Part shown: one piece after another, positions 4,502 to 54,249 of the stretch
How positions within the stretch are numbered: position 1 is the stretch's first letter
How the letters are laid out: every line of letters starts with the position of its first letter
Virus record (IMG/VR): IMGVR_UViG_3300021476_000001
Coordinates: 1-64,000 of that record
Source of the DNA: a virus
DNA: 64,000 bases
Reading direction: 5' to 3' (one strand)
Position numbers and translations under genes: made by a program
The notes under the pieces: generated by a model
The model's input: only the letters and a program-made list of their open reading frames with translations
Database searches by the model: none
What the model was told of the DNA's origin: nothing

Positions 4502-7500
4502 ATGCAACCTACAGAAACTGAATTAGCTCTATGGGCGAATCAAGTCATGGTTGACTGTCTTATAGAGGCTAATGGAGACGTAAACGTTGGGCTTGCTGCG
4601 GCAGCATACATACTTGAGACTCAGTCGATACCTCTTGCAGTAGACCCACGTGGGCACCACCATAGGGGTAAAGGTGGAGCGCAAGGTGGACAGTTTACTA
4701 GTCCAGGGGTAGGTGAAGGTGACATTGGGCCAGCTACAGGACACCCAAAAACAGCAGGAGGTAAAGGTGGACAATCAAGTCAATCAAGATCAGGAGGATC
4801 AGGAACTGTTCGACAATCTAATGCAGCAGGGCAAGGAGTGGAAGGAGCACCTGGAGCAGCCAGTGATGCAGGCGCTGATAAAGGAGGGCAAGCTCAAGCC
4901 CAGCAGACTGATATTGGGACTGGTGGAAGCGTACAACGAGCACCTAAAGAGCAATCCGCCGCAATTGCCAGGATAGACAAGCTAAGTAGTTGGGCTAATA
5001 GAACAGGCAAGTCATATATATCAATGTGGCTTGGAGACTTAAAATCGCACGTCAACAAGTTTGGTGTAGAGCACTCACTTAAGAGTATGGAGCGTGAAGC
5101 TCCAACAGGCGGTAAGCGCGAACCTGTAGTGTACGACCCAGGAGAGGAGTATCCACAAGACTGGAATGAATATGTTCGTGGGTACCTAAACCACTATGGG
5201 ATAACTTCTCTTTATGACTTACCTAAAGCATCAAAACCGATGGATACTAGCTCTTCTGGTGATACAGTTGGTTTACGTCATACTACTGACGCCGTTCTAC
5301 CAGAGGGAGTGCCAACAAAGGCAGATGCTGATGGCTTAGTATGGTTCTTTGATGGACCAGGGTATGGTAGCTATGGTAAGCATGAATACAAGCTCTCAAT
5401 TCCAAAGGATAAACTCCTTGATTTGGACGATCTCGAACACCCTGAAATACTCAAAGAATACCTAGCTACTTATAAGTCACGTTCAAAACAGAAGGAACAC
5501 GAGTTTGCAACCAAAAAGGGATTTTGGGCTATTAAACGCGGCCAAGACATAGCGATGACACCAGAGCGCGCTAAAGCTCTAATGCAACTTAATGCCCAAC
5601 CGCCAAAGCAGAAGGTTATATCTACTCTTACGCCTAAAGCTCGTGAGAGTCAGGAAGAACCAGCATATCCAGAACATACACAGATAGCCTTCAGACCAGC
5701 GGAATCTGGACTGACTGATAAGCTTAAAGAGGCTAAACATATACCCGGCTTAGAGAGTAGTGAGGACCTTAATGTAATAATAGGAGCACCAGTAACTCAC
5801 ATAAATGACTCTGTTGTTAAAACACTTGATGATAGATATGGTAAAGATGCTTGGATAATAAAACCATATACTGGGGATGCGTTTGCTGGACATGGTATCT
5901 TCTTTCCTGAGAGAGTAGAAGAGTTCCAAAAGCAGCAGAAAGAGCTTATGTGGGATGCTGAGAGAAGTCTAGCCTCTACCGGACTTAGTATGGTAAAAGA
6001 CCAGAAAACTGGAGTTGTTTCTGGGGTACAGAATGAGCAAGGAGACTACTTTAACCTTGACTCTCCAGAATATGCTAAGTTAGCTCAAACCAACCACGCG
6101 CTTGCAAACTTGTCAATAGCACACATGAGGGGGGCTACCAAGGGAATACCACTTTTGGACCGTGAAGGTATGGTCACTGGTAAAGGCTACATGGCACAGC
6201 CTGCATACCAAGCTATAAGTCAAGCAGAGAAAGCGTCACGAGCTGAAGGAGCGCCTTACGCACACACTGAAGCCCGTGTACACGTTATAACTAACAAGGG
6301 ACAAGCTCAAGTTGTTCCTTATGGGACTTTTTACAAGAGACGTCCATTTCCTATAGTTTTTCAAGACAATGACAGCAGAGAGATAGAAAGAGTAGCTCAC
6401 GAAGCCGTAATGAACGTACCTGAGTCTGAACGCCAAGGACACGTTTATGCCCCAGACGTAATAAAGACTCCACAAGGATATAAAGTAGTAGAGCTGAATC
6501 CGTCTAACGAGATAGGGAGTAGTGGACACTTAGGAAGTAACCCACTTATTATAGACGCCTATGTCTCTGCTCTTCAAGGACATAAACCGGGATTCGCTCA
6601 ATTTATTGAAAGAGTATTAACTAAGAAGGGAGCCAAGAGTTCAGAAGCTGCGCTTAGCATGTTCTTTGCCTTCGACATTTATAACAAGCAAGCTCAAGGT
6701 ATCCTGAACCGTGCTCTCAAAGCGGCTAGAGGATTAAGTACCCAAGCCAGAAAAGACTTGGAAAAGGCGTTAAAGAAAGGACCGACTGATAGTGGTGAAG
6801 CAATTCTAAAGTTTATAGATAAATACCGTCTACAACTTTCTAGACTTCTCAGCACAACACAACTTGCCTCGCTATTAGAAGGCGCTCGTGAAGTGGCTAT
6901 TGGTCTACCTACACTTGCAACCTTTCCTGGTGCAGTGCCTCCTCCTCCGTCACTTGAGCCAAAGGAAGCAGTCAAGTTAGTAGAGAAAATAGCCAAGTTG
7001 AGAGACGAGGCGAGAGCTAGGGCAATATACAACTTACCAGAGGACCAACAGACCTACGTCCAACAGTCCATACTCGCAGAAGAGGCAAGCACTCCAATAG
7101 TCCCACCGGCATTCACTCCTCCATCCCCTCCAGAGGGATCGCCCGAAGAGATTCACTTCCCAACTATAGAGAACGCAGTAAAGCACCTCTCTGAGAAGAA
7201 CGTATTAACTCGTGAACGATTCGACGCTGTTGACGCTGCTACTAAGGCTAAGTCATTTACTGTAGCTAGTGTAGACGCTGAAGAAACTCTGACTAAGATA
7301 CGTGACGAACTTGCAGAGAACGTAAGGACCGGAGCCAGCTTCGAGAAGTTCAAGGAGAATGTATTGGACGCAGTAGACCAAGGAACCTTTTTGTCCGATG
7401 CCCACATGGAGACTGTGTTCCGCACAAACGTTCAGAGCGCTTTCTCCGATGGACAGATGGCGGTCTTAAACCACCCACTGGTACGAAGTGGATTCCCATA

Positions 7501-36712: not shown

Positions 36713-36786
36713 ACGACCGTAGAGCAGCGGCCTAGCTCGCCTGGCCCATAACCAGGAGGTCGGTGGTTCAAATCCACCCGGTCGTA
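36713..36786 (+). tRNA. tRNA with CAT anticodon, initiator-tRNA-like body
   Basis: Hand-folded cloverleaf. Acceptor acgaccg/cggtcgt, D arm gagc-agcggccta-gctc, anticodon arm cctgg-cccataa-ccagg. Variable loop aggtc, T arm ggtgg-ttcaaat-ccacc, discriminator a. 74 nt, no encoded CCA. Confidence 0.75.
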
Positions 36787-38172: not shown

Positions 38173-38244
38173 AGGCGCTTAGCTCAGAGGTAGAGCAGGA
38201 GACTCATAGTCTCTTGGTCGCTGGTTCGACCCCAGCAGTGCCTA
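38173..38244 (+). tRNA. tRNA with CAT anticodon, tRNA-Ile2 (lysidine)-like body
   Basis: Hand-folded cloverleaf. Acceptor aggcgct/agtgcct (one G:U pair), D arm gctc-agaggta-gagc, anticodon arm ggaga-ctcatag-tctct. Variable loop tggtc, T arm gctgg-ttcgacc-ccagc, discriminator a. 72 nt. Confidence 0.75.
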
Positions 38245-38377
38245 CTATGCCAGCCTCAAATAGAGTAGGACAACCAAGGAAGACACCGGTGTAAGAAGTA
38301 GTACATGGAGAGTGTACTATAAGATTGGGTTACAAAACTTGGTCTGGGCCATCAGCTTGCAAGGTAAGGAGTTAACT

Positions 38378-42955: not shown

Positions 42956-43134
42956 GTGAAGACAGGAAGGTAGACTCTGGAGTAATGGATACTACTACAG
43001 TAGGTTGTAAGAACTGTAAAGTGCTGTGGGATGAGTTAAGAGAAGTCAAAAAGGAGATAGGGAGGTTAAAAAACTATGCCAATTTCCTCGAAAAGGAACG
43101 TAAGAGACTGCTTAACGCCCTACTGGAAATCTGA
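42952..43134 (+). CDS. hypothetical small coiled-coil protein
   Basis: GTG start overlaps the primase stop (GTGA). It overlaps the listed start of the next gene, so one of the two starts is uncertain. Confidence 0.35.
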   Translation: MSEDRKVDSGVMDTTTVGCKNCKVLWDELREVKKEIGRLKNYANFLEKERKRLLNALLEI

Positions 43135-44347
43135 GTGTGGCTGTGCTGTGGTGTATATAGGGGACTGTCTAGATGTTATGGCACATTTAGAACCTAATCA
43201 GTTCCACGCCATAATTACAGACCCTCCATACAACCTTTCGTTTATGGGTAAAGACTGGGACTCTTATAAAGACCCTCATCTCTTTCAAAAGTGGTTTAAG
43301 GAGCGGACTGATGAGATGCTTAGAGTGGCTAAGCCTGGAGCACATTTACTGTCATTTGGTGGTACTAGGACGTGGCATCGTATGACTTGTGCTATAGAAG
43401 ACACTGGATTTAAGATTAGAGACTGCCTAATGTGGTTATGCTCTACAGGCTTTCCAAAGGGGACAGATGTATCAAAGGATATTGACAAGGAGTACGGAGT
43501 TAAAAGAGAGATTACTGGAACTGTTCAATCAGAGTCTTCACAGACTAGACAGATACAAGACGGGAAAGCTATGAGGTTTAACCCATTCGGAAATATGGAG
43601 CAGATAAGTGGAGTAGAAGCTAAGGCTAGAAGTGGAATTAGATATGACATTCCTGTAACAGAAGACGCCCAAAGATGGCAGGGGTGGAATACAGCGCTTA
43701 AACCTGCATGGGAACCTATAGTTGTTGCTAGGAAGGAACTTATTAAGAATGTAGCATACAACTCGATAGAGAACCATTGTGGTGGTATGAACGTAGACAC
43801 TTGTAGAGTCGGAACAACAGGAGCGGTTATTGAGAGAAATGGTGAGACTGCTAGGAAAAGCTCAGGCTCAGGTATTTATTGCTTCAATAGAGAAGGGGAT
43901 ACCTCGATGCACGGGAGCTTAGCTAAATTCACAAAGGATGGGCGCTACCCTGCTAATTTAATACATGACGGGTGTTTACCTGATGAGATTGCAAGGTTCT
44001 TCTACTCAGCGAAAGCAGGAGGGAGTGATAGACCACATGGCAGAATAGACTCACATCCAGCAGTAAAGCCACTTGATCTAATGCGCTACTTGGTCAAACT
44101 GGTCTGCCTTCCTGGCACTATAATACTAGACCCATTTATGGGTTCAGGAAGCACAGGCTGTGCTGCAATAGAAGAAGACGTGCACTTCGTCGGTATAGAA
44201 CAGTTACAAAGCTATGCCGACAAAGCTATAGGTAGACTTAAACTGTCATTGGAGAAGAGAGGAGATAAGGAGTTCCCAGCACTTCCTACTAAAGTGCAAC
44301 ATCCAGTGAAGTCGGTTATGTCAACAAAGAGGTTTAGAGGACTTTAG
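43076..44347 (+). CDS. DNA N6-adenine/N4-cytosine methyltransferase (DPPY, beta-class motif order)
   Basis: YIGDCLDVMAHL..FHAIITDPPYNLSF is motif IV near the N-terminus. ILDPFMGSGSTGCAAIEE is motif I near the C-terminus. The start could be a downstream GTG (about 43147). Confidence 0.75.
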   Translation: MPISSKRNVRDCLTPYWKSECGCAVVYIGDCLDVMAHLEPNQFHAIITDPPYNLSFMGKDWDSYKDPHLFQKWFKERTDEMLRVAKPGAHLLSFGGTRTWHRMTCAIEDTGFKIRDCLMWLCSTGFPKGTDVSKDIDKEYGVKREITGTVQSESSQTRQIQDGKAMRFNPFGNMEQISGVEAKARSGIRYDIPVTEDAQRWQGWNTALKPAWEPIVVARKELIKNVAYNSIENHCGGMNVDTCRVGTTGAVIERNGETARKSSGSGIYCFNREGDTSMHGSLAKFTKDGRYPANLIHDGCLPDEIARFFYSAKAGGSDRPHGRIDSHPAVKPLDLMRYLVKLVCLPGTIILDPFMGSGSTGCAAIEEDVHFVGIEQLQSYADKAIGRLKLSLEKRGDKEFPALPTKVQHPVKSVMSTKRFRGL

Positions 44348-47447: not shown

Positions 47448-47762
47448 ATGATATGCCCTCAGTGTTATGGACGTGGAGTGATGGAGAACTGTATACAGTA
47501 TCAACCGTGCCCACTTTGTAGTGGGTTCGGTGTAGTGCTCTGCTGTGAGGGTATGCAGAGCCAGCCCAACTATACTGAATTGGAGGTAACTATGTCAGTG
47601 TCAAGAAGTAGGCACAGGAGACAACAGCAGAGACTTAAGAAGCAGCGTGCCAAAGAAGAGGAAGACCTACAATTGATAGGAGGAGTAATACAGAGCCATG
47701 CCAGTGTCAAACTACAACCGCGAAGAGAGCGGAGGCCGAGGAAGCAGCTCAAGGCAGGATGA
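47448..47762 (+). CDS. DnaJ-type zinc-finger (CxxCxGxG x2) small basic protein
   Basis: MICPQCYGRGV..CPLCSGFGV, followed by an Arg/Lys/Gln-rich tail. ATG 47448 (the listed start 47415 is a GTG). Confidence 0.5.
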   Translation: MICPQCYGRGVMENCIQYQPCPLCSGFGVVLCCEGMQSQPNYTELEVTMSVSRSRHRRQQQRLKKQRAKEEEDLQLIGGVIQSHASVKLQPRRERRPRKQLKAG

Positions 47763-48339
47763 CACACTTGGGACGAGTGGTAGCACGGCGGAGTCTAGTA
47801 GAGGTAACTTAGAGGGTCTATCACATAGCCAGCGTAGAAACTTGAGGCAGAAACTCAAGGCACAGTATGCTAGGATACGCGAAGACGCACAGCTGGCAGG
47901 AGTGATAGAGACTACGCCGCAGGGGGCCGCTCGGAATGAAGTTGTAGACCCTCGTCTACAAGGGTGCCAGCAACTGCCAGAGTTGATACGTCAAGCTCTG
48001 AAAGAGTGTTGGGCAGTGCCAGATAGTGCTAAGCCAGGGATAATAGGGGCGCTGTTAGAGCCATTCTTCTCCAATGATATAGTGTTGGATAAGGATGGAA
48101 ACCAGGTAAGAGTGGCACCTAGTAGGACTCTATTGATAGAACTTGCCAGAACATTAAAGATGCTAGACCAGACGCAGTTCGAGCGAGATCATCCTGAACT
48201 GGCAGCAAAAGCTAGGGGTGGCGGAAGTATATCGGTTAATAACAACATACAAGCTGCGCTAGTGCTACGGGGGATGATAGAGAAGGGGGAACTGGGAGGG
48301 GTGGTAGAACACTTGAAAGGAGAGACTGTACATGATTAA
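47698..48339 (+). CDS. hypothetical protein
   Basis: ATG 47698 (MPVSNYN). Overlaps the previous gene by 65 nt, so start confidence is modest. Confidence 0.45.
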   Translation: MPVSNYNREESGGRGSSSRQDDTLGTSGSTAESSRGNLEGLSHSQRRNLRQKLKAQYARIREDAQLAGVIETTPQGAARNEVVDPRLQGCQQLPELIRQALKECWAVPDSAKPGIIGALLEPFFSNDIVLDKDGNQVRVAPSRTLLIELARTLKMLDQTQFERDHPELAAKARGGGSISVNNNIQAALVLRGMIEKGELGGVVEHLKGETVHD

Positions 48340-48583
48340 AACAACACAGTGTAATGTGACATCGTTTTTGTGTCCGGCGTGTGGTCGGCCAGGTTTAACA
48401 ATAGCTATGGCTAGTAATTGGTTTGGCAGTTGGATGTGTCGTATGTGTGGTGCCAGTGGGTCATACCCACCTGCGCTGAGTTGTAAAGAGGGCGAACTGA
48501 GGAAAGTGGTGGAGCCGGCGTCCGGGCCAAGCGAGAGAGTAATAGGAAGTGATAGAAACGAAAAAACCCCACCAGGTTTTTAA
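48332..48583 (+). CDS. small zinc-ribbon protein
   Basis: Contains CPACGRPG..CRMCGASG. Last gene of the rightward block. Confidence 0.45.
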   Translation: MIKTTQCNVTSFLCPACGRPGLTIAMASNWFGSWMCRMCGASGSYPPALSCKEGELRKVVEPASGPSERVIGSDRNEKTPPGF

Positions 48584-48594
48584 GTCTGGTGGGG
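48561..48594 (-). terminator. rho-independent terminator for the leftward genes (at the convergence point)
   Basis: Stem ccccaccag (48567-48575) / ctggtgggg (48586-48594). On the minus strand it is followed by TTTTTT (complement of 48561-48566). Confidence 0.6.
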
Positions 48595-48602
48595 TTATGT
48601 GG

Positions 48603-48836
48603 TTACATAGCTCGCTCAATACACTCCCCGTCTTCAAACGTCCATGTCTGTTTGACTGGAGTTTCATTACACCATTGGCCGTGCGTGGCACACCACCAAA
48701 CTCGGTAGGGTGCTCTATCAGGCCAGATCATTTGTGGGCTCCGTTGCATTTCGCAGTCTGCGGTGTGGCGGTCACTGAATCCATGCCTTGGTGCGATCCC
48801 AGTCTCTAGCAGTCCAAGTTCTCGGGGATGGTACAT
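48603..48836 (-). CDS. hypothetical small Cys/Trp-rich protein
   Basis: RBS aaggaga lies 5 nt upstream of the ATG (48836). The terminator lies immediately downstream. Confidence 0.5.
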   Translation of the reverse strand: MYHPRELGLLETGIAPRHGFSDRHTADCEMQRSPQMIWPDRAPYRVWWCATHGQWCNETPVKQTWTFEDGECIERAM

Positions 48837-48868
48837 TGCAGTCTCCTTCTGATAGAAGTGGTGGACAG

Positions 48869-48902
48869 AAAAAAACCCTGCCTAGTGGTATACTAGGCAG
48901 GG
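48869..48902 (-). terminator. rho-independent terminator (minus strand)
   Basis: Stem ccctgcctag (48876-48885) / ctaggcaggg (48893-48902), followed by T7 on the minus strand (A-run 48869-48875). Confidence 0.65.
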
Positions 48903-48911
48903 TTCGTGATG

Positions 48912-49448
48912 CTACACAGCGTCTTGCTCATCCGTACTAGGTGTGGTAACACTCTTTTTGCTGTTCTTGAGAGCTTCCTTCTCCTCGGCCCTCCGGATGT
49001 TCTCGGCGAGTTTTTCCTCGTCGGTCATTGGGCGGACGTCACGGACCACCAAGCCCCCTTTAGGGAACTTGTTCCCATTTTCGTCCTTGCGGAAAATTTT
49101 ACCGAAAAGGTAGCGACGCCGCAGGGCAGTGCGGATCTTCGGCGGCATTCCATCAACCGGGACATTGTAGTGCCGTTTGACAGTCTCTTTGCCGTCAAGC
49201 ACGCTCCCCTTGTCGTTCTCTGGTCCCTCGGACCGTCTGAGAATGATGCCAACCGAGTTGCTGGCTTTGGCAAACCACTCGTCCCAAGGGTATTTTGTAC
49301 CCCCAAATTTGCCGGTACCAACCAGACCAGTGCAGTTTTCTGGTGCAGTCTCCACGTCGTTCTCTACCAACTGAACTGGTTCTGCCGGCTGAACTGGTTC
49401 AGTCGGTTGAACTGGTTCTGCCGACTTGACTGGAGCTTTCTTAGCCAT
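48912..49448 (-). CDS. KYPWDEWF-family protein with N-terminal (A/T)EPVQP repeats
   Basis: ATG at 49448 (MAKKAPVK) is preceded by ggaga. The listed ORF extends to 49547 without an RBS. Contains GTKYPWDEWF and KIFRKDENG. The mirror + strand ORF 48906..49541 is rejected. Confidence 0.55.
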   Translation of the reverse strand: MAKKAPVKSAEPVQPTEPVQPAEPVQLVENDVETAPENCTGLVGTGKFGGTKYPWDEWFAKASNSVGIILRRSEGPENDKGSVLDGKETVKRHYNVPVDGMPPKIRTALRRRYLFGKIFRKDENGNKFPKGGLVVRDVRPMTDEEKLAENIRRAEEKEALKNSKKSVTTPSTDEQDAV

Positions 49449-49540
49449 GACACAGTCTCCGAATATCTGCTCGACCGTGCAGTGCCTACACGCGAAAGTG
49501 CGAGAGGTATCACACGGTTTTGCATCCACAGAAATGTTTA

Positions 49541-49566
49541 GAACCAATGGGCAGGGGAAGTGGCTC
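49541..49566. repeat. left arm of 26-bp imperfect inverted repeat
   Basis: The reverse complement of gaaccaatgggcaggggaagtggctc matches 49874-49899 at 22 of 26 positions. Confidence 0.85.
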
Positions 49567-49601
49567 GACTTGTAAGAAGTTTTTATTCTAGTAAGGTGCG
49601 T

Positions 49602-49808
49602 CTAGTCTCGGATTTCAAGGCGAGGAGCGGGAATCCATGCGCTCTTAAAACTCTTGCTGTGTACTAGACAGTAGAGTGCATCGTTTGCATCGTACATGGT
49701 GTCCACGACGATGCCAGTCATGCCATTCTGCGGATCATCTGTGTGGATGCGTCGTACAGTTTTGCCCATCCACAATGAGGAGATCCATGCGTTTCCAGGG
49801 TGTGGCAT
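49602..49808 (-). CDS. hypothetical small protein (68 aa) flanked by the inverted repeats
   Basis: RBS ggaga lies 8 nt upstream of the ATG (49808). Sequence starts MPHPGNAW. Confidence 0.5.
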   Translation of the reverse strand: MPHPGNAWISSLWMGKTVRRIHTDDPQNGMTGIVVDTMYDANDALYCLVHSKSFKSAWIPAPRLEIRD

Positions 49809-49873
49809 TGGGGGTTCTCCATTTTGTAAGGGGTTAGACTTCTAGGGACTCAATGGAAGTCTCCATTCTAGTG

Positions 49874-49899
49874 GAGCCACTTCCCGCGACCATTGGTTC
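49874..49899. repeat. right arm of 26-bp imperfect inverted repeat
   Basis: gagccacttcccgcgaccattggttc. Confidence 0.85.
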
Positions 49900-50267
49900 T
49901 AGCGTGCGTATCGTTCCATTGTGCGAGACTAGGTGTTAGCCAGTCTGGACTAATGGAGCGTACCTAAATTGTCAAAGAGCCACCATCCGGTCATAGACCG
50001 GGATTACCCTACACGAGCACGGGGCGATTGGGCCGATTGCACTCCCCATGTCTATCGGGTAATCAAGTTCAAGGGGGACTTTGGGGGTCGAACCCGTTGG
50101 GGATGCTGTACCCCAGCCCATCACAGCCTGTGACCCTGTGCTGTGCTGCTAGTCCCACGTCCACCATAGCCCGGTATTGCGGTGGGGCTAGGCATTCGCC
50201 TGTTCCCTCCGCCGCATTGCCAATACCATATGCAACGCCCATGCCAATCCATTGGCATGGCGAGGAT

Positions 50268-50291
50268 ACCGCATTCCTGATGCGGTTTTTT
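50268..50291 (+). terminator. terminator-like hairpin + T-run inside the non-coding region
   Basis: accgcat-tcctg-atgcggt followed by ttttt. It is preceded by the perfect hairpin ccatgccaat-cc-attggcatgg (50239-50260). Confidence 0.4.
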
Positions 50292-50400
50292 AACCTTGGG
50301 GATCTAGCCCCCTACCATGCCGCCCATGCGAGTGTAGCATACCACGTCAGGCGCTCCGTATGATTTTGCATTTCCCGTAGCATTTCGCTACTCCCCACGT

Positions 50401-50428
50401 TTGTATAGCGTATCATTTCTGCTACAAT
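50401..50428 (+). promoter_or_regulatory. weak sigma70-like promoter candidate
   Basis: ttgtat, a 16-nt spacer, then tacaat. It reads into the CCATG array. Confidence 0.25.
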
Positions 50429-50798
50429 GCACACCCATCCATGACCATGCACCCATGTACCATTGACTATGCCATGCCCGTAATGCGTCCACGATTGCGA
50501 ATGCCGCGTCCTGGCCATGCCAGGCTACCCATGTACCAACCATGCCACCCATGCGGCCTAGCGGCCGTGCCAGACCGATCCGTGGCCATGCCTGGCCGCG
50601 TACCTAGCCGCTACGCCCGCCTCTACCTACCCATGTCTATAGGGTCACCTAACTCCTCTAGCTAGACAGCACTAAGTCTTCTAGTTCGCCTAGCCTAGCC
50701 TAATCCCTACCCATACCTCCTACCCATGCAGTCACCCGGTCTGCCTAGTGCGCCCGAAGCGTGTTGTGCGGAGAGTCAAGGGGGTGTATGGGACCCGC

Positions 50799-50947
50799 CT
50801 ACTTTTACACTCAACATATCTCCCGTCTATAGAGTTATAACGAAAACTACTTCTACACTCAACACACCTACACCCCTCTAAGTTATAACTAAACACACTA
50901 CTCCTAAGTTATAACACATCACAGTAGCAGCGCTGTAGAGTTATAAC
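50799..50947. repeat. iteron-like repeats: two ~43-bp units plus four AGTTATAAC boxes
   Basis: ctacttttacactcaacatatct (50799-50821) matches ctacttctacactcaacacacct (50847-50869) at 20 of 23 positions. AGTTATAAC occurs at 50833, 50881, 50907 and 50939. Confidence 0.85.
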
Positions 50948-51023
50948 CCTACCCCCATTAAACTCTTTGAGGAAAGAGTAGTATTGCAGCCACAGCACCG
51001 TTTAAGTTAGTATATAGCAACTC

Positions 51024-51040
51024 AAAAAAAAAAATTTTTT
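51024..51040. repeat. A11T6 homopolymer junction
   Basis: caaaaaaaaaaattttttc. Confidence 0.9.
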
Positions 51041-51193
51041 CTTAACCCAGCGCTCCTAACCGAGTTATACTAGACGTAGGCTCAATTGCAACCGCAGGAC
51101 ACTTAAGTTCGCTAATATGTCGACTAAGTGAAACCGGCTTAGAAAAGTGCAAAAGAGAAGAAAAAGACATCAATGCAATAACTGTGCGATACT

Positions 51194-51220
51194 CTACTAC
51201 TACTACTACTACTACTACTA
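51194..51220. repeat. (CTA)9 trinucleotide microsatellite
   Basis: Nine perfect tandem cta units, 37 nt upstream of ATG 51257. Confidence 0.95.
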
Positions 51221-51256
51221 TAGAGGCAAGACTGCAAGAGTGGAGACTTTAAGGTT

Positions 51257-51487
51257 ATGTATATATTACAGAGAAAACAACGAGGTAACCCACTCATAAG
51301 AGGTCAATGGTTTCTAAACCAACTTGCCGAGGTAAAAGTGACTTGTCCTGCCTGTGGAGGATTAGGGGATCTGAACGACCACCAGATAGCTTTGATCGGA
51401 ACTGGTGATGGGGTAGTCACACCCTCCGTGCAATGCGAGTGTGGCTTCCATGACGAAGTTGTATTAAAGAACTGGAGCCTAGAATGA
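51257..51487 (+). CDS. small zinc-ribbon protein
   Basis: Contains CPACGGLG..CECG. First ORF of the late rightward operon. Confidence 0.45.
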   Translation: MYILQRKQRGNPLIRGQWFLNQLAEVKVTCPACGGLGDLNDHQIALIGTGDGVVTPSVQCECGFHDEVVLKNWSLE

Positions 51488-51633
51488 AGAAGAGGATATG
51501 GGCACGTGTACCTGAACCAGAATGGGTTCAATGGTGGGATTGGGCGTTACTATTAGGCTACTTACTCTTTGGGGTTCTTATTGTCTTGCCACTTAGCCTT
51601 CTGTTTAATAGGGACATCATTAGTGAGGATTAA
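51484..51633 (+). CDS. small single-pass membrane protein (49 aa, below the ORF-track cutoff)
   Basis: ATG 51484 overlaps the upstream stop (ATGA). Encodes MKKRIWARVPEPEWVQWWDWALLLGYLLFGVLIVLPLSLLFNRDIISED with one hydrophobic helix. Confidence 0.35.
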   Translation: MKKRIWARVPEPEWVQWWDWALLLGYLLFGVLIVLPLSLLFNRDIISED

Positions 51634-51756
51634 GCGCTATTGAAATCCGTTAGCGCTTAAAGCTATAGAGTCCTAAGTTATGCACTTATCTATACAGATA
51701 CTACCTATAGGTATTCCTAGCGCAAAACACGCTTTACCAATGACCGGAACAGCTCT

Positions 51757-54249
51757 ATGAACACAACGAACGACATACTCAACAGATGCCCCCACCTCCT
51801 ATCCCCCGCTCATCTTGCTATAGCCGACACAGGTGGCAAAGAGAAGAACCCTCCTCACTTGCAGAAGTTGACTGAGATGCTAGTCAAGGCTTGGCGAACT
51901 CCAAACTCAAGGACCGCTGTCATCCTCCCATTCCAACATGGGAAACAGCTTACTCACGACACTCCTATACTCACAGAGTGTGGGTGGAAAACACACGGGG
52001 AACTGAAAGTTGGTGACTATGTATTCTCCCCAAGTGGCCTACCCGTTAAAGTATTAGCACTGTCCGAAGACGGTAAGTCTGATTACTTAGTACACTTCTC
52101 TGATGGATCAAAAATACAATGTCATAGCAGACATGAGTGGTATGTCTATGATAGAGGTAACCAGAGATTTATAATTGCCGAAACACAGTACATTGCTGGG
52201 AGAAAACTAAAAGCAGATACACACTTTGTGTTTAGTGTACCGAGAATACTACCACTCATAATGCCATCACAAGCACTAGCTCTACACCCATACGCACTAG
52301 GAGCTTGGCTTGGAGATGGAAACTCTGACTATCCTTGGTTATCACACGGAGGAGATGACTGGGAAGTAGTAAATGGGATAATAGCTTGTGGATATAAGTG
52401 TACAAGACGGACTCTGATGCGAAATGAGTTAGGGGAATCCTACTATAGTGTATTCAACGGAATGATGGCTGGATTGGTTGGATACTGTCTGCTTGGTAAT
52501 AAGCACATACCTGAAGACTATCTATTCGCTTCTGACGAACAAAGGATGGAGCTACTGGCTGGCTTAATAGACACGGATGGCAATTATTCACCAGAGAAGA
52601 GGGAAGAGTTTGGTGGCGGTGGACAGTATAGGTTTACTAATACAAACAAGCGCCTTATTGACCAAGTAGCCTTCCTAGTTAGAACACTTGGATTCAAGCC
52701 CTCTATACAAGAGTACGAACCTACAACAACTACATCGGGTATAGTAGGTAAGGAAAGAGTTTATGTAATTGCTTTTTCACCAACGAGAGCGATACCCTGT
52801 CGGTTACCACGAAAGCAAACTATAGGACTCTCTGAACCTTGTCGTGTTGCGATAACAAAGATCGAGAGATGCACTCCGAAACCAGGACGTTGTATAGAAG
52901 TAGAAGGAGGACTTTATTTAGTCGGTGAGAACCTAACTCCAACTCATAACTCTCGTAGATGCTCTATCTACTTCCCAGCGTGGGTGTTACTCCTGTGGCC
53001 TGAGACTCGTATAGCTCTAGCAAGTTATGAGGAAACGTTTGCTTGCAGCTTCGGAGCTAAGGTGCGTGACATAGTCAACCGTTACGGACCTGCATTCGGT
53101 ATCAACTTACGAGATGACACCAACGCTAAAGGTGAATGGATTATAGACAGCTATGAAGGTGGTATGGTCTGTAAGGGCAGAGGCGGTGCACTAACTGGAA
53201 GACCTGCTGACCTACTTATTATAGATGACTGTATAAAGAATAGTGAGGAAGCTCAGTCGCCTACTATCTTGGAGAACCTATGGGACTGGTATTGCACAGT
53301 GGCCTATAGTCGCCTTGGTCCAACTGCTCCTATAGTCATAATAGGTACACGATGGGGGCCACATGACTTATTCAGTAGAATTGAGGCGGAAGGTAAAGTA
53401 GGTGGTGATAAGTTCGAGACTCTTACCTTCAAAGCGATAGCCACAGAAGGAGACTTGCTAGGTAGAAAGATAGGTGAGGCTTTATGGCCTGAAAGGGTGC
53501 CTCTAGATAGACTTGAAAAGATTAAGAAGGCTAGACCTCGTTGGTTCCGCGTCTGTTGGCAGGGTGAGTCTGAGGGTGAGACTGGTGTCCACTTCCAACC
53601 AAAAGAGTGGCCACGTTATACTGATGTAGGAGACGCTTGGCGTGTCCACGCTGGAATTAACTGGGACCACTATAGAAAGCTTGAGTGTACTATCCTTCAT
53701 GCTGTAGACTGGGCACAGAGCGGAAAGAAGAAGTCAAATAAGACCGCTATAGTTACAGGTGCATTGACTCCAGATGGTAAGATTCTAGTGCTCAGCGTCC
53801 TCAACAAGCTACTCCGCTATGAAGAGAACGCTCCAGCGCTAAATGAAGTATGCAAGTTATTTGCTAACTTTGCTGGGGACCCTATGGACACTATCGTGTG
53901 CTCCGACGACGACATGCTCTCAGACGCCATGATGGTCGAGTGCAAAAGGTTTCGTGCTATACCCCCTATCAAGCTCCTTGCCATAAAATCTAAATCCAAA
54001 ATTAACCGAGCGCAGGCTAGTATAATACGGAGTCAAAATCACATGTTTCTACTGCCTAGCATAGTCTATGAGTGGGAAGAAGAGATGACGGACCAGTTAG
54101 CTGCATTCACAGGCGAAGAGGGTGAAGAGGATGATATTGCAGACTGCTTTGGTATACTAGGTCGCCTAGCTAACGAGTTTGCACCTGGCGAAGATCAAGA
54201 AGAACAAGAACCTGTACTCGGCTCAATAGGATTCAGTGGAGAATGGTAA
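51757..54249 (+). CDS. terL: terminase large subunit (intein-containing precursor)
   Basis: The P-loop PFQHGK|...|SRR is reconstituted after removing residues 64-398. Walker B is ADLLIIDD. Other motifs are IIGTRWGPHD and the nuclease-domain acidic motifs HAVDWAQSG and DDIADCFG. The mature protein would be 495 aa. Confidence 0.8.
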   Translation: MNTTNDILNRCPHLLSPAHLAIADTGGKEKNPPHLQKLTEMLVKAWRTPNSRTAVILPFQHGKQLTHDTPILTECGWKTHGELKVGDYVFSPSGLPVKVLALSEDGKSDYLVHFSDGSKIQCHSRHEWYVYDRGNQRFIIAETQYIAGRKLKADTHFVFSVPRILPLIMPSQALALHPYALGAWLGDGNSDYPWLSHGGDDWEVVNGIIACGYKCTRRTLMRNELGESYYSVFNGMMAGLVGYCLLGNKHIPEDYLFASDEQRMELLAGLIDTDGNYSPEKREEFGGGGQYRFTNTNKRLIDQVAFLVRTLGFKPSIQEYEPTTTTSGIVGKERVYVIAFSPTRAIPCRLPRKQTIGLSEPCRVAITKIERCTPKPGRCIEVEGGLYLVGENLTPTHNSRRCSIYFPAWVLLLWPETRIALASYEETFACSFGAKVRDIVNRYGPAFGINLRDDTNAKGEWIIDSYEGGMVCKGRGGALTGRPADLLIIDDCIKNSEEAQSPTILENLWDWYCTVAYSRLGPTAPIVIIGTRWGPHDLFSRIEAEGKVGGDKFETLTFKAIATEGDLLGRKIGEALWPERVPLDRLEKIKKARPRWFRVCWQGESEGETGVHFQPKEWPRYTDVGDAWRVHAGINWDHYRKLECTILHAVDWAQSGKKKSNKTAIVTGALTPDGKILVLSVLNKLLRYEENAPALNEVCKLFANFAGDPMDTIVCSDDDMLSDAMMVECKRFRAIPPIKLLAIKSKSKINRAQASIIRSQNHMFLLPSIVYEWEEEMTDQLAAFTGEEGEEDDIADCFGILGRLANEFAPGEDQEEQEPVLGSIGFSGEW
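51946..52950 (+). mobile_element. intein (335 aa) with LAGLIDADG homing-endonuclease domain, class-3-like
   Basis: Block A is QLTHDTPILTECGWKTHGELKVGDYVFSPSG. Block B is IQCHSRHEW. LAGLIDADG motifs are LGAWLGDGNS and LLAGLIDTDGNYS. Blocks F and G are GRCIEVEGGLYLVGENLTPTHN, followed by the +1 Ser. Confidence 0.75.

Follow-up and report, generated by a model that had tools for sequence, protein, structure and literature searches.

Phage T7 reportedly carries two arrays of short repeats, SRL and SRR, in which the motif CCTAAAG is present in ~12 copies next to the terminal repeat. The pac site of phage P1 contains seven TGATC(A/G) hexamers. The pac site of phage SPP1 has three sets of direct repeats, which span the promoters as well as the beginning of the gene for the small terminase (PMC4737164). 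Strong orientation bias is seen for Chi sites in some phages: in phage LLS, 20 of the 23 sites are in one (active) orientation and clustered at the genome end beside cos, and in phage MD8 the split by orientation is 32 versus 0 (PMC12315714). Phage T5 has an injection-stop (iss) region, an untranslated repeat region that T5-like phages have in common and that is built around DnaA boxes in pairs (bioRxiv 10.1101/866236).

An uncultured phage with a genome of ~74 kb carries, beside its terminase genes, an oriented array of the short motif CCATG, which resembles several known phage cis-elements but shows the full set of defining properties of none. The window analysed here, meaning the whole stretch of 64,000 nucleotides (positions 1 to 64,000 of IMG/VR virus record IMGVR_UViG_3300021476_000001), covers ~87% of a circular metagenome assembly of 73,859 bp (ENA ERZ27251167). 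The array lies in a non-coding hub (~49810-51257), and the features in and around this hub are, from left to right:

47698-48339, + strand: conserved gene of 213 amino acids, putative small terminase, assigned by position only
48340-51756, no strand: lineage-specific 3.4-kb insertion that carries the array, between the 213-aa gene and the large-terminase gene
48873-49448, - strand: 178-aa gene (48912-49448) with a strong terminator (48905-48873); homologues adjoin non-coding hubs in the relatives L149 and L005
49900-50295, + strand: candidate structured RNA (fold z = -3.67), which ends in the terminator at 50268-50292 and contains the + strand copies at 50046 and 50239 and the - strand copy
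50046-50728, + strand: co-oriented CCATG array, 15 copies, with the extended form C[CT]RCCCATGY, up to CCTACCCATG
50239-50260, no strand: perfect palindrome with 10-bp arms, CCATGCCAAT-CC-ATTGGCATGG
50268-50292, + strand: intrinsic-terminator-like hairpin (8-bp stem, then T6), directly left of the dense array
50401-50428, + strand: promoter-like site TTGTAT-N16-TGcTACAAT with an extended -10; predicted start ~50435
50439-50635, + strand: dense core of the array (197 bp), containing 10 copies, of which several pairs are separated by 8-11 bp; base composition 40% C, 22% G
50626-50954, + strand: four copies of CCTACCC (50626, 50706, 50719 and 50948) against 0.4 expected; none on the - strand there
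50799-50947, no strand: G-poor, A/C-rich segment that includes a tandem repeat of 48 bp (50799-50893) and, four times, the palindrome GTTATAAC (50834, 50882, 50908 and 50940)
51024-51071, no strand: A11T6 tract (51024-51040) followed by a promoter-like TTAACC-N18-TATACT (51042-51071, + strand) that points to the terminase operon
51757-54249, + strand: large terminase (TerL), 830 aa, with a LAGLIDADG intein-like insert

The array is genuine and statistically robust, far beyond what chance would produce. CCATG begins on the + strand at 50046, 50239, 50315, 50324, 50439, 50445, 50453, 50472, 50515, 50529, 50540, 50549, 50586, 50631 and 50724; the one copy on the - strand occupies 50256-50260. Ten of the + strand copies are CCATGC, four are CCATGT and one is CCATGA, and 12 of the 15 fall within 50315-50635. 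These counts had been made by hand in an initial annotation of the DNA, and a recount reproduced them exactly. Across 5000 dinucleotide-preserving shuffles of 50045-50732, the expected number on the + strand is 2.81 +/- 1.56 with a maximum of 9, compared to the 15 observed, and the expected number on the - strand is 1.57, compared to one observed. The split of 15:1 between the strands has a binomial P of 0.008 given the local composition. Enrichment and strand bias are the two statistics that the annotation had singled out for checking; the enrichment survives correction for local base composition and dinucleotides. At the scale of the whole window, 15 CCATG per 700 bp is the biggest cluster of any 5-mer. 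When the window was shuffled 100 times with dinucleotides preserved, the top 5-mer cluster per 700 bp averaged 8.1 and never exceeded 10; outside the hub, the top cluster of the real window is 8. CCATG as such is not enriched across the window (98 observed versus 116 expected), and outside the tract it is found 37 times on the + strand versus 56 times on the - strand. There is no second array in the remaining 9.3 kb of the genome, and the array is thus the single one in ~73.3 of 73.86 kb.

What is conserved among the copies is the short core and its orientation; these are invariant while the flanks diverge. The extended consensus is C[CT][AG]CCCATG[CT][CA]. The heptamer ACCCATG, which the annotation had described as frequent, occurs five times against 0.19 expected, and CCATGC ten times against 1.16. 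Spacing within the array is irregular, from 6 to 193 bp, with no helical phasing found in it. A partition-like role had been mentioned among the possible functions of a protein-binding array. This part of the proposal found no support, in view of the irregular spacing and because no ParA/ParB-like gene was detected among the minority of window ORFs that were screened. The part that invoked a packaging-related binding protein fared better: since the array adjoins the terminase genes, such a role would be reasonable.

Several of the copies sit in small inverted repeats. Both hairpins in the annotation were found again, cctggc-cat-gccagg at 50510-50524 and ggcca-tgcc-tggcc at 50584-50597, the latter being one base longer than first described. 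Only 2 of the 15 motifs lie in the loops of such hairpins. The single - strand CCATG owes its existence to the perfect palindrome CCATGCCAAT-CC-ATTGGCATGG, of which it forms part of the second arm.

Another proposal is that the tract is a cluster of methyltransferase or restriction targets built on CATG, a 4-bp palindrome; methyltransferase targets had been suggested in the annotation. The phage does encode at least one N6/N4 methyltransferase (43076-44347), and all 16 CATG sites of the tract belong to a CCATG on one or the other strand. However, CATG elsewhere occurs at 0.74 of its expectation, compared to 0.69-0.83 for other 4-bp palindromes, and the unit that is conserved (CCATG or CCCATG) is asymmetric and extends 5' of CATG. 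A methylation-target cluster is accordingly very improbable.

The array could in principle also encode a repeated peptide, because short ORFs overlap the tract. The three ORFs noted at the outset (50028..50363, 50312..50518 and 50441..50665) are indeed present, and they had been viewed as by-products of the repeated ATG. A - strand ORF at 50388-50552 has a coding score of 0.115, which just reaches the range of coding sequence. The + strand ORFs score only -0.22 and -0.24, as compared to 0.29 +/- 0.10 for coding chunks of this genome and -0.47 +/- 0.18 for non-coding frames. The motif falls in all three phases (8, 2 and 5 copies), CTAG is over-represented and stop codons are abundant, and public annotation calls no gene in the tract. 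No homologue of these ORFs was found in the relatives and none had a Pfam match; a 74-aa ORF has only a low-complexity match among 1.8 billion representatives. A conserved translated ORF across the tract, which would have undercut the initial proposal, was thus not found. The tract is thus non-coding by score, by phase, by gene calls and by homologue search, and a peptide-repeat gene, which is barely credible on these data, is close to refuted.

Nearly all genes of this phage are on the + strand. DNA polymerase, a 735-aa primase/helicase-like gene and the methyltransferase gene lie upstream of the array, and the putative small-terminase gene and TerL flank it. TerL, which has reached a length of 830 aa because of the LAGLIDADG intein-like insert, begins 1.0-1.7 kb downstream of the array on the same strand, and the promoter-like site at 51042-51071 precedes two small ORFs and then TerL. 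The 213-aa gene lies on the other side, so that the array is 1.7-2.4 kb downstream of it. This gene abuts or overlaps TerL in seven relatives (L002, L006-L009, L011 and L021), and in one other phage (that of L085) over 8 kb separate its homologue from TerL. The 213-aa protein has no Pfam or PHROG match, and its AlphaFold model (pLDDT 72) has no significant match in the PDB; its designation as a putative small terminase is based on position. In seven further relatives (L003, L016, L086, L005, L150, L018 and L004) the slot adjoining TerL is filled by an Sf6-type small terminase, a gene that is missing from the window genome. The small-terminase slot of this group of 70-80-kb phages would then be filled by two non-homologous genes. 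The closest characterised TerL is that of Gordonia phage APunk (40% identity), whose database record begins at the small-terminase gene; by SEA-PHAGES convention, this presumably indicates a circularly permuted genome.

The roles in packaging, as a Chi-like element, as an origin or as RNA that are discussed below are all proposals from sequence. The explanation that we tentatively prefer is that the array is an accessory non-coding DNA element that is read one way at a packaging start or genome end, in the manner of pac or of Chi. In a pac-like form of this model, an oligomeric DNA-binding protein would assemble on many weak sites in the same sense and in this way define where packaging begins, as in recognition by a small terminase. 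In a Chi-like form, a DNA-end-processing helicase-nuclease would enter at an end made by terminase, scan the sites and become attenuated. For such a scanning enzyme only the number and the orientation of sites would count, which would suit both the irregular spacing and the accessory status of the array. We lean toward the Chi-like form on these two grounds, while the genomic position leans the other way, toward the pac-like form.

The comparison with known pac sites gives a mixed picture. The boxes A-C of SPP1/SF6 and the pac site of P1 are likewise short direct repeats clustered in a promoter-containing region beside terminase genes, and by analogy the repeats described here are candidate sites for a ring-shaped small terminase. 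Position in or near the terminase genes is therefore as expected for a pac site. The known sites have only 2-7 copies, however, whereas 15 copies of a 5-10-bp core are spread here over 0.7 kb. In addition, the array is downstream of the putative small-terminase gene and within an insertion that is missing from relatives. At the equivalent place in those relatives no equivalent element was found, only loosely analogous clusters in L003, L016, L086 and L149. A further weak point of the pac-like form is the status of the 213-aa protein, a putative small terminase that matches no family or fold.

The Chi sites of LLS and MD8 share with the array a short asymmetric motif that is almost always in one orientation. 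They are also concentrated, on the circular map, directly upstream of the packaging start and on the same strand as the terminase genes (the start being putative in the present phage), and they too are an accessory, lineage-specific feature. In those phages, however, the motif is the known Chi of the host and follows a genome-wide gradient, whereas CCATG would be only a candidate Chi here. The array is also packed into 0.7 kb of non-coding DNA with a C-rich top strand, and its 15:1 bias is confined to the tract, in contrast to LLS, where the bias extends over the genome. Another weak point of the Chi-like form is that a lambda-like geometry would make the C-rich strand the active one, whereas known Chi sequences are rich in G. 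The short-repeat arrays of T7 are similar in that a co-oriented short motif is irregularly spaced in non-coding DNA, located in T7 at the concatemer junction, where its role is unclear. The two T7 arrays flank a defined terminal repeat, in contrast to the single array seen here, and the phages are unrelated.

Should the array prove to be a signal for packaging or for protection of ends, it would stand out among such signals by its compactness and its many copies, and it would have been acquired as an accessory cassette. Its sequence would in that case reveal either what a small-terminase family, so far uncharacterised, recognises, or a Chi-like sequence used by an uncultured host from groundwater or soil.

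The accessory status of the array follows from its distribution. None of the sampled relatives, even those closest by TerL, has the 3.4-kb insertion at 48340-51756, and nothing of its content is found in them apart from the 178-aa gene. No relative has a CCATG array either, and clusters of the motif do not exceed six across 80 metagenomic TerL loci; a check of whether motif number is conserved in related phages, as had been proposed, thus came out negative. Because both the insertion and the array are missing from every sampled relative, the array cannot be the core pac site of the family. More generally, as far as sequence comparison goes, this absence would favour an accessory element over a pac site or origin that belongs to the core of the whole family. 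Even the nearest relatives by TerL share just ~67% amino-acid identity, a distance too large for judging conservation of the array at the nucleotide level.

A search of 50,697 phage records gave no nucleotide similarity, and TerL has no relatives in IMG/VR or in 185,579 species genomes. When two patterns taken from the array were sought as exact matches in IMG/VR, only chance matches came up, with no CCATG cluster among them. Candidates from a scan of the species genomes for paired CCTACCCAT(G) were rejected as unrelated tandem repeats, one of them a 29-bp repeat in Rubritalea and the other, in a Myxococcales MAG, a repeat that encodes Gly-Met-Gly. The 178-aa protein of the insertion has no family match, and a word search yields only one, distant homologue; its gene is found at various places in L005, L008, L016 and L149.

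One of these relatives, L149, has a hub of similar design. Its 1.45-kb non-coding hub adjoins both the terminase genes and the L149 version of the 178-aa gene. The hub has a terminator on the + strand, a stretch that is rich in C and has its GC skew reversed, tandem repeats of 43 bp that are rich in CA, and a strong promoter. CCTACCC occurs five times on the + strand of L149 and not at all on the - strand, and all five copies are inside the hub. This oriented heptamer, contained in the extended motif CCTACCCATG, is thus common to the two hubs, even though they do not otherwise align better than shuffles. Three other relatives have oriented repeats directly upstream of their Sf6-type small-terminase gene: CTGACC in four copies with 10-bp-spaced pairs in L003, TGTATA in six copies together with GGATATCC in L016, and TGGAC in 11 copies, inside an open ORF, in L086. 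A GCCTGG cluster in L011 was considered as a similar array and discarded as a coding Gly-rich repeat. The likeness of the L149 hub and the repeats in the other relatives suggest that the window hub may be more than noise. The pattern across relatives is nevertheless weak, because the L011 cluster is coding, the L086 array is in an ORF and L003 has four copies only. If the pattern holds, lineage-specific oriented short repeats adjoining terminase genes would be a recurring feature of this 70-80-kb phage group.

The main competitor of a functional packaging or end element is that the array is a neutral by-product, in which a short C-rich unit was expanded by local duplication or slippage within acquired foreign DNA. 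The tract does contain longer sub-repeats that suggest duplication: the 20-mers at 50311 and 50536 agree to 90%, the 12-mers at 50451 and 50527 to 100%, and a 14-mer is present at both 50512 and 50583. Its GC content is 57% compared to ~45% for the genome, it belongs to an insertion unique to this phage, and it is not conserved in relatives. On the other hand, TRF finds no regular tandem structure in the array, and the core and its orientation have stayed invariant though the flanks have diverged. Non-coding DNA is otherwise scarce in this compact genome, and L149, whose hub is independent, has the CCTACCC sub-motif in oriented copies as well. A neutral origin is therefore possible but somewhat doubtful.

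The hub as a whole has a distinct composition. To the left, the array is bordered by the + strand terminator; the zone that borders it to the right is rich in A/T and has repeats and a promoter-like site. To the right of the dense core there is first a stretch with repeats of CCTAGC and CCTACCC; the + strand then becomes strikingly poor in G (11% in 50801-50990), and the C/G ratio across 50436-50990 is 1.8. GC content drops to 39% in 50800-51250, which includes the A11T6 tract. In nearly every 1-kb bin of the genome the + strand has more G than C, and the sole strong exception is 50001-51000, where G-C is -113; across ~73 kb the next-lowest bins do not fall under -29. The G-quadruplex potential of the tract is unremarkable. 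A ~590-bp tandem duplication in the region was also considered and rejected, the supposed copies having only a 19-nt repeat in common and an alignment score equal to that of shuffles.

This composition raises the possibility that the tract is a replication origin, with repeats that bind an initiator (for example, the phage primase-helicase) beside an A/T-rich unwinding element. The repeats are directly followed by the 39% GC zone with its tandem repeats and A11T6, as would be expected of an origin, and the 735-aa primase/helicase-like protein could be such an initiator. The tract also has the only strong GC-skew reversal in the genome, and in L016 the corresponding region resembles an array of iterons. 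However, a core of 5-10 bp with a spacing of 6-193 bp is unlike regular iterons of 17-22 bp, and no initiator gene adjoins the tract. DnaA-box matches are not enriched in the window (203 versus 207 expected), and the array differs in this respect, as well as in its lack of conservation, from the iss region of T5. With the element located in an insertion that relatives do not have, a role as origin is quite unlikely.

The remaining alternative to a directional packaging or end element is that the array acts as RNA. Transcription of the dense core might start from the promoter-like site (50401-50428) and yield an RNA that is unstructured, rich in C and equipped with ~11 CCAUG, which would serve either as a sponge or as a Rho-loading (rut-like) leader that gates the terminase operon. 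The initial annotation had noted a weak promoter pointing into the array, and the site is present, with an extended -10 (TGcTACAAT). This match ends 7-8 nt before the first dense-core copy, the predicted start is 3-4 nt before that copy, and there is a + strand terminator just upstream. The RNA would be C-rich and G-poor, as reflected in the C/G ratio, and would fold no more than shuffles. Two of the copies would be in small hairpin loops, and strict orientation combined with irregular spacing is what one would expect of a motif-bearing sponge RNA.

CsrB/RsmZ and CrcZ are sponge RNAs of this motif-bearing kind, with many copies of a short motif in one orientation and at irregular spacing, downstream of a promoter. 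The array differs from them in that no terminator was found after it, it has no Rfam match near the gathering score, and only the two motifs already mentioned are in hairpin loops. The promoter itself is a match to consensus only, and promoter matches in the region are no more numerous than in shuffles. The earlier idea of a structured RNA in particular did not hold up for the core, since 50296-50800 folds like shuffles on both strands (z = +0.69 and +0.59, with a further value of -0.47 for the core). To our knowledge, no RNA-binding protein recognizes CCAUG, and we know of no multi-CCAUG RNA of this sort. Transcription of the array into a functional RNA is thus unlikely. It is less likely still, to the point of being improbable, that the core from ~50435 onward is a phage sponge or decoy RNA (~11 CCAUG) that titrates an RNA-binding factor of host or phage, or 30S/initiator-tRNA complexes at its many AUGs, or a Rho-loading gate before the packaging operon. 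If a CCAUG sponge were transcribed from this region, it would represent a new class of phage regulatory RNA.

The sequence of the region is identical in two assemblies. A Logan assembly from SRR8856740 is 100% identical to the metagenome assembly and hence gives no information on polymorphism. [quoted passage not shown]

In this phage group, either of two non-homologous gene families occupies the slot immediately 5' of the gene for the large terminase (TerL). The relevant genes are as follows, with relatives represented by their metagenomic large-terminase loci (L003, L005 and so on, position after the colon):

Window 51757-54249, + strand: TerL, 830 aa, of which about 340 aa form a LAGLIDADG intein-like insert
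Window 47698-48339, + strand: member of an unannotated ~213-aa family, in the slot upstream of TerL
L003:239-886; L016:7520-8119; L086:~5000-5711: Sf6-type small terminase, in the same slot

Such alternation points to the small terminase having undergone non-orthologous displacement within the group. Family and fold searches with the 213-aa protein returned no significant match. TerL owes its length to the insert, which lies between residues about 62 and 399; the intein-free TerL proteins of relatives span 460-530 aa and are 65-72% identical to the window protein across the terminase parts.

Shortly 5' of the Sf6-type genes, three of the relatives carry oriented clusters of short repeats, which are candidate pac-type repeats:

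L086:4215-4689: TGGAC, 11 copies, with none on the other strand within the same stretch
L003:25-95: CTGACC, four copies, in pairs spaced 10 bp
L016:6740-6870: TGTATA, six copies, with GGATATCC

The TGGAC cluster falls within a called ORF of 504 aa.

In the window, the CCATG array has neighbors of several kinds:

48905-48873: terminator of the 178-aa gene, 14-bp stem
49539-49579 and 49861-49901: 41-nt inverted repeat, 80% complementary
49640-49647, + strand: octamer CGCTCTTA, identical to lambda boxA
50799-50947: 48-bp tandem repeat and four GTTATAAC palindromes
51024-51040: A11T6 tract
51190-51220: (TAC)10.7 microsatellite

At 48906-49547, each strand has an ORF of 211 codons, and the two overlap. 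The genuine gene is the one on the minus strand, which begins at 49448 and encodes 178 aa; its coding score is 0.215, versus -0.152 for the plus-strand ORF, and homologues were found in four relatives. The 41-nt inverted repeat encloses a 68-aa minus-strand ORF (49602-49808) with a good ribosome-binding site, and together they could form a small mobile or regulatory unit. A 6-bp hairpin follows the boxA octamer after 11 nt in a nut-like arrangement; this lone 8-mer may be a chance match. The 396 nt at 49900-50295 (+ strand) fold far more stably than shuffled versions (z = -3.67; none of 100 shuffles was equally stable), and a hairpin resembling a terminator, with T6 after it, closes the stretch at 50268-50292. 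This stretch, which has no match in Rfam, is possibly a small or leader RNA.

To the right of the array, the elements at 50799-50947 and 51024-51040 probably belong to a divergent control region, as operators or promoters. Of the seven exact GTTATAAC copies in the window, four fall within this right flank; AGTTATAAC, with at most one mismatch, has 39 occurrences in the window, where 19.6 would be expected. The microsatellite marks the break in an independent assembly of this phage from Logan; the ends of that assembly overlap by 30 nt, which shows it to be circular, at 73,859 bp.

Some relatives have a non-coding hub or a divergent control region:

L149:6360-7810: non-coding hub, 1.45 kb
L149:7740-7767: strong promoter, 10/12 matches, extended -10
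L005:5940-6540; L016:6190-6530: divergent control region, containing repeats of GGGTTTAC and GTTAAC

The L149 hub holds five copies of CCTACCC, all on the plus strand, along with GGTGAGT repeats, a CAGAC-rich 43-nt inverted repeat and CA-rich tandem repeats of 43 bp. The divergent regions hint at a genetic switch; the minus-strand gene flanking that of L016 resembles, by eye, an XRE-type HTH gene. L005 has two copies of CCATGC, at 6324 and 6338.

The window also carries two tRNA-Met (CAT) genes:

36713-36786: tRNA-Met (CAT)
38173-38245: tRNA-Met (CAT)
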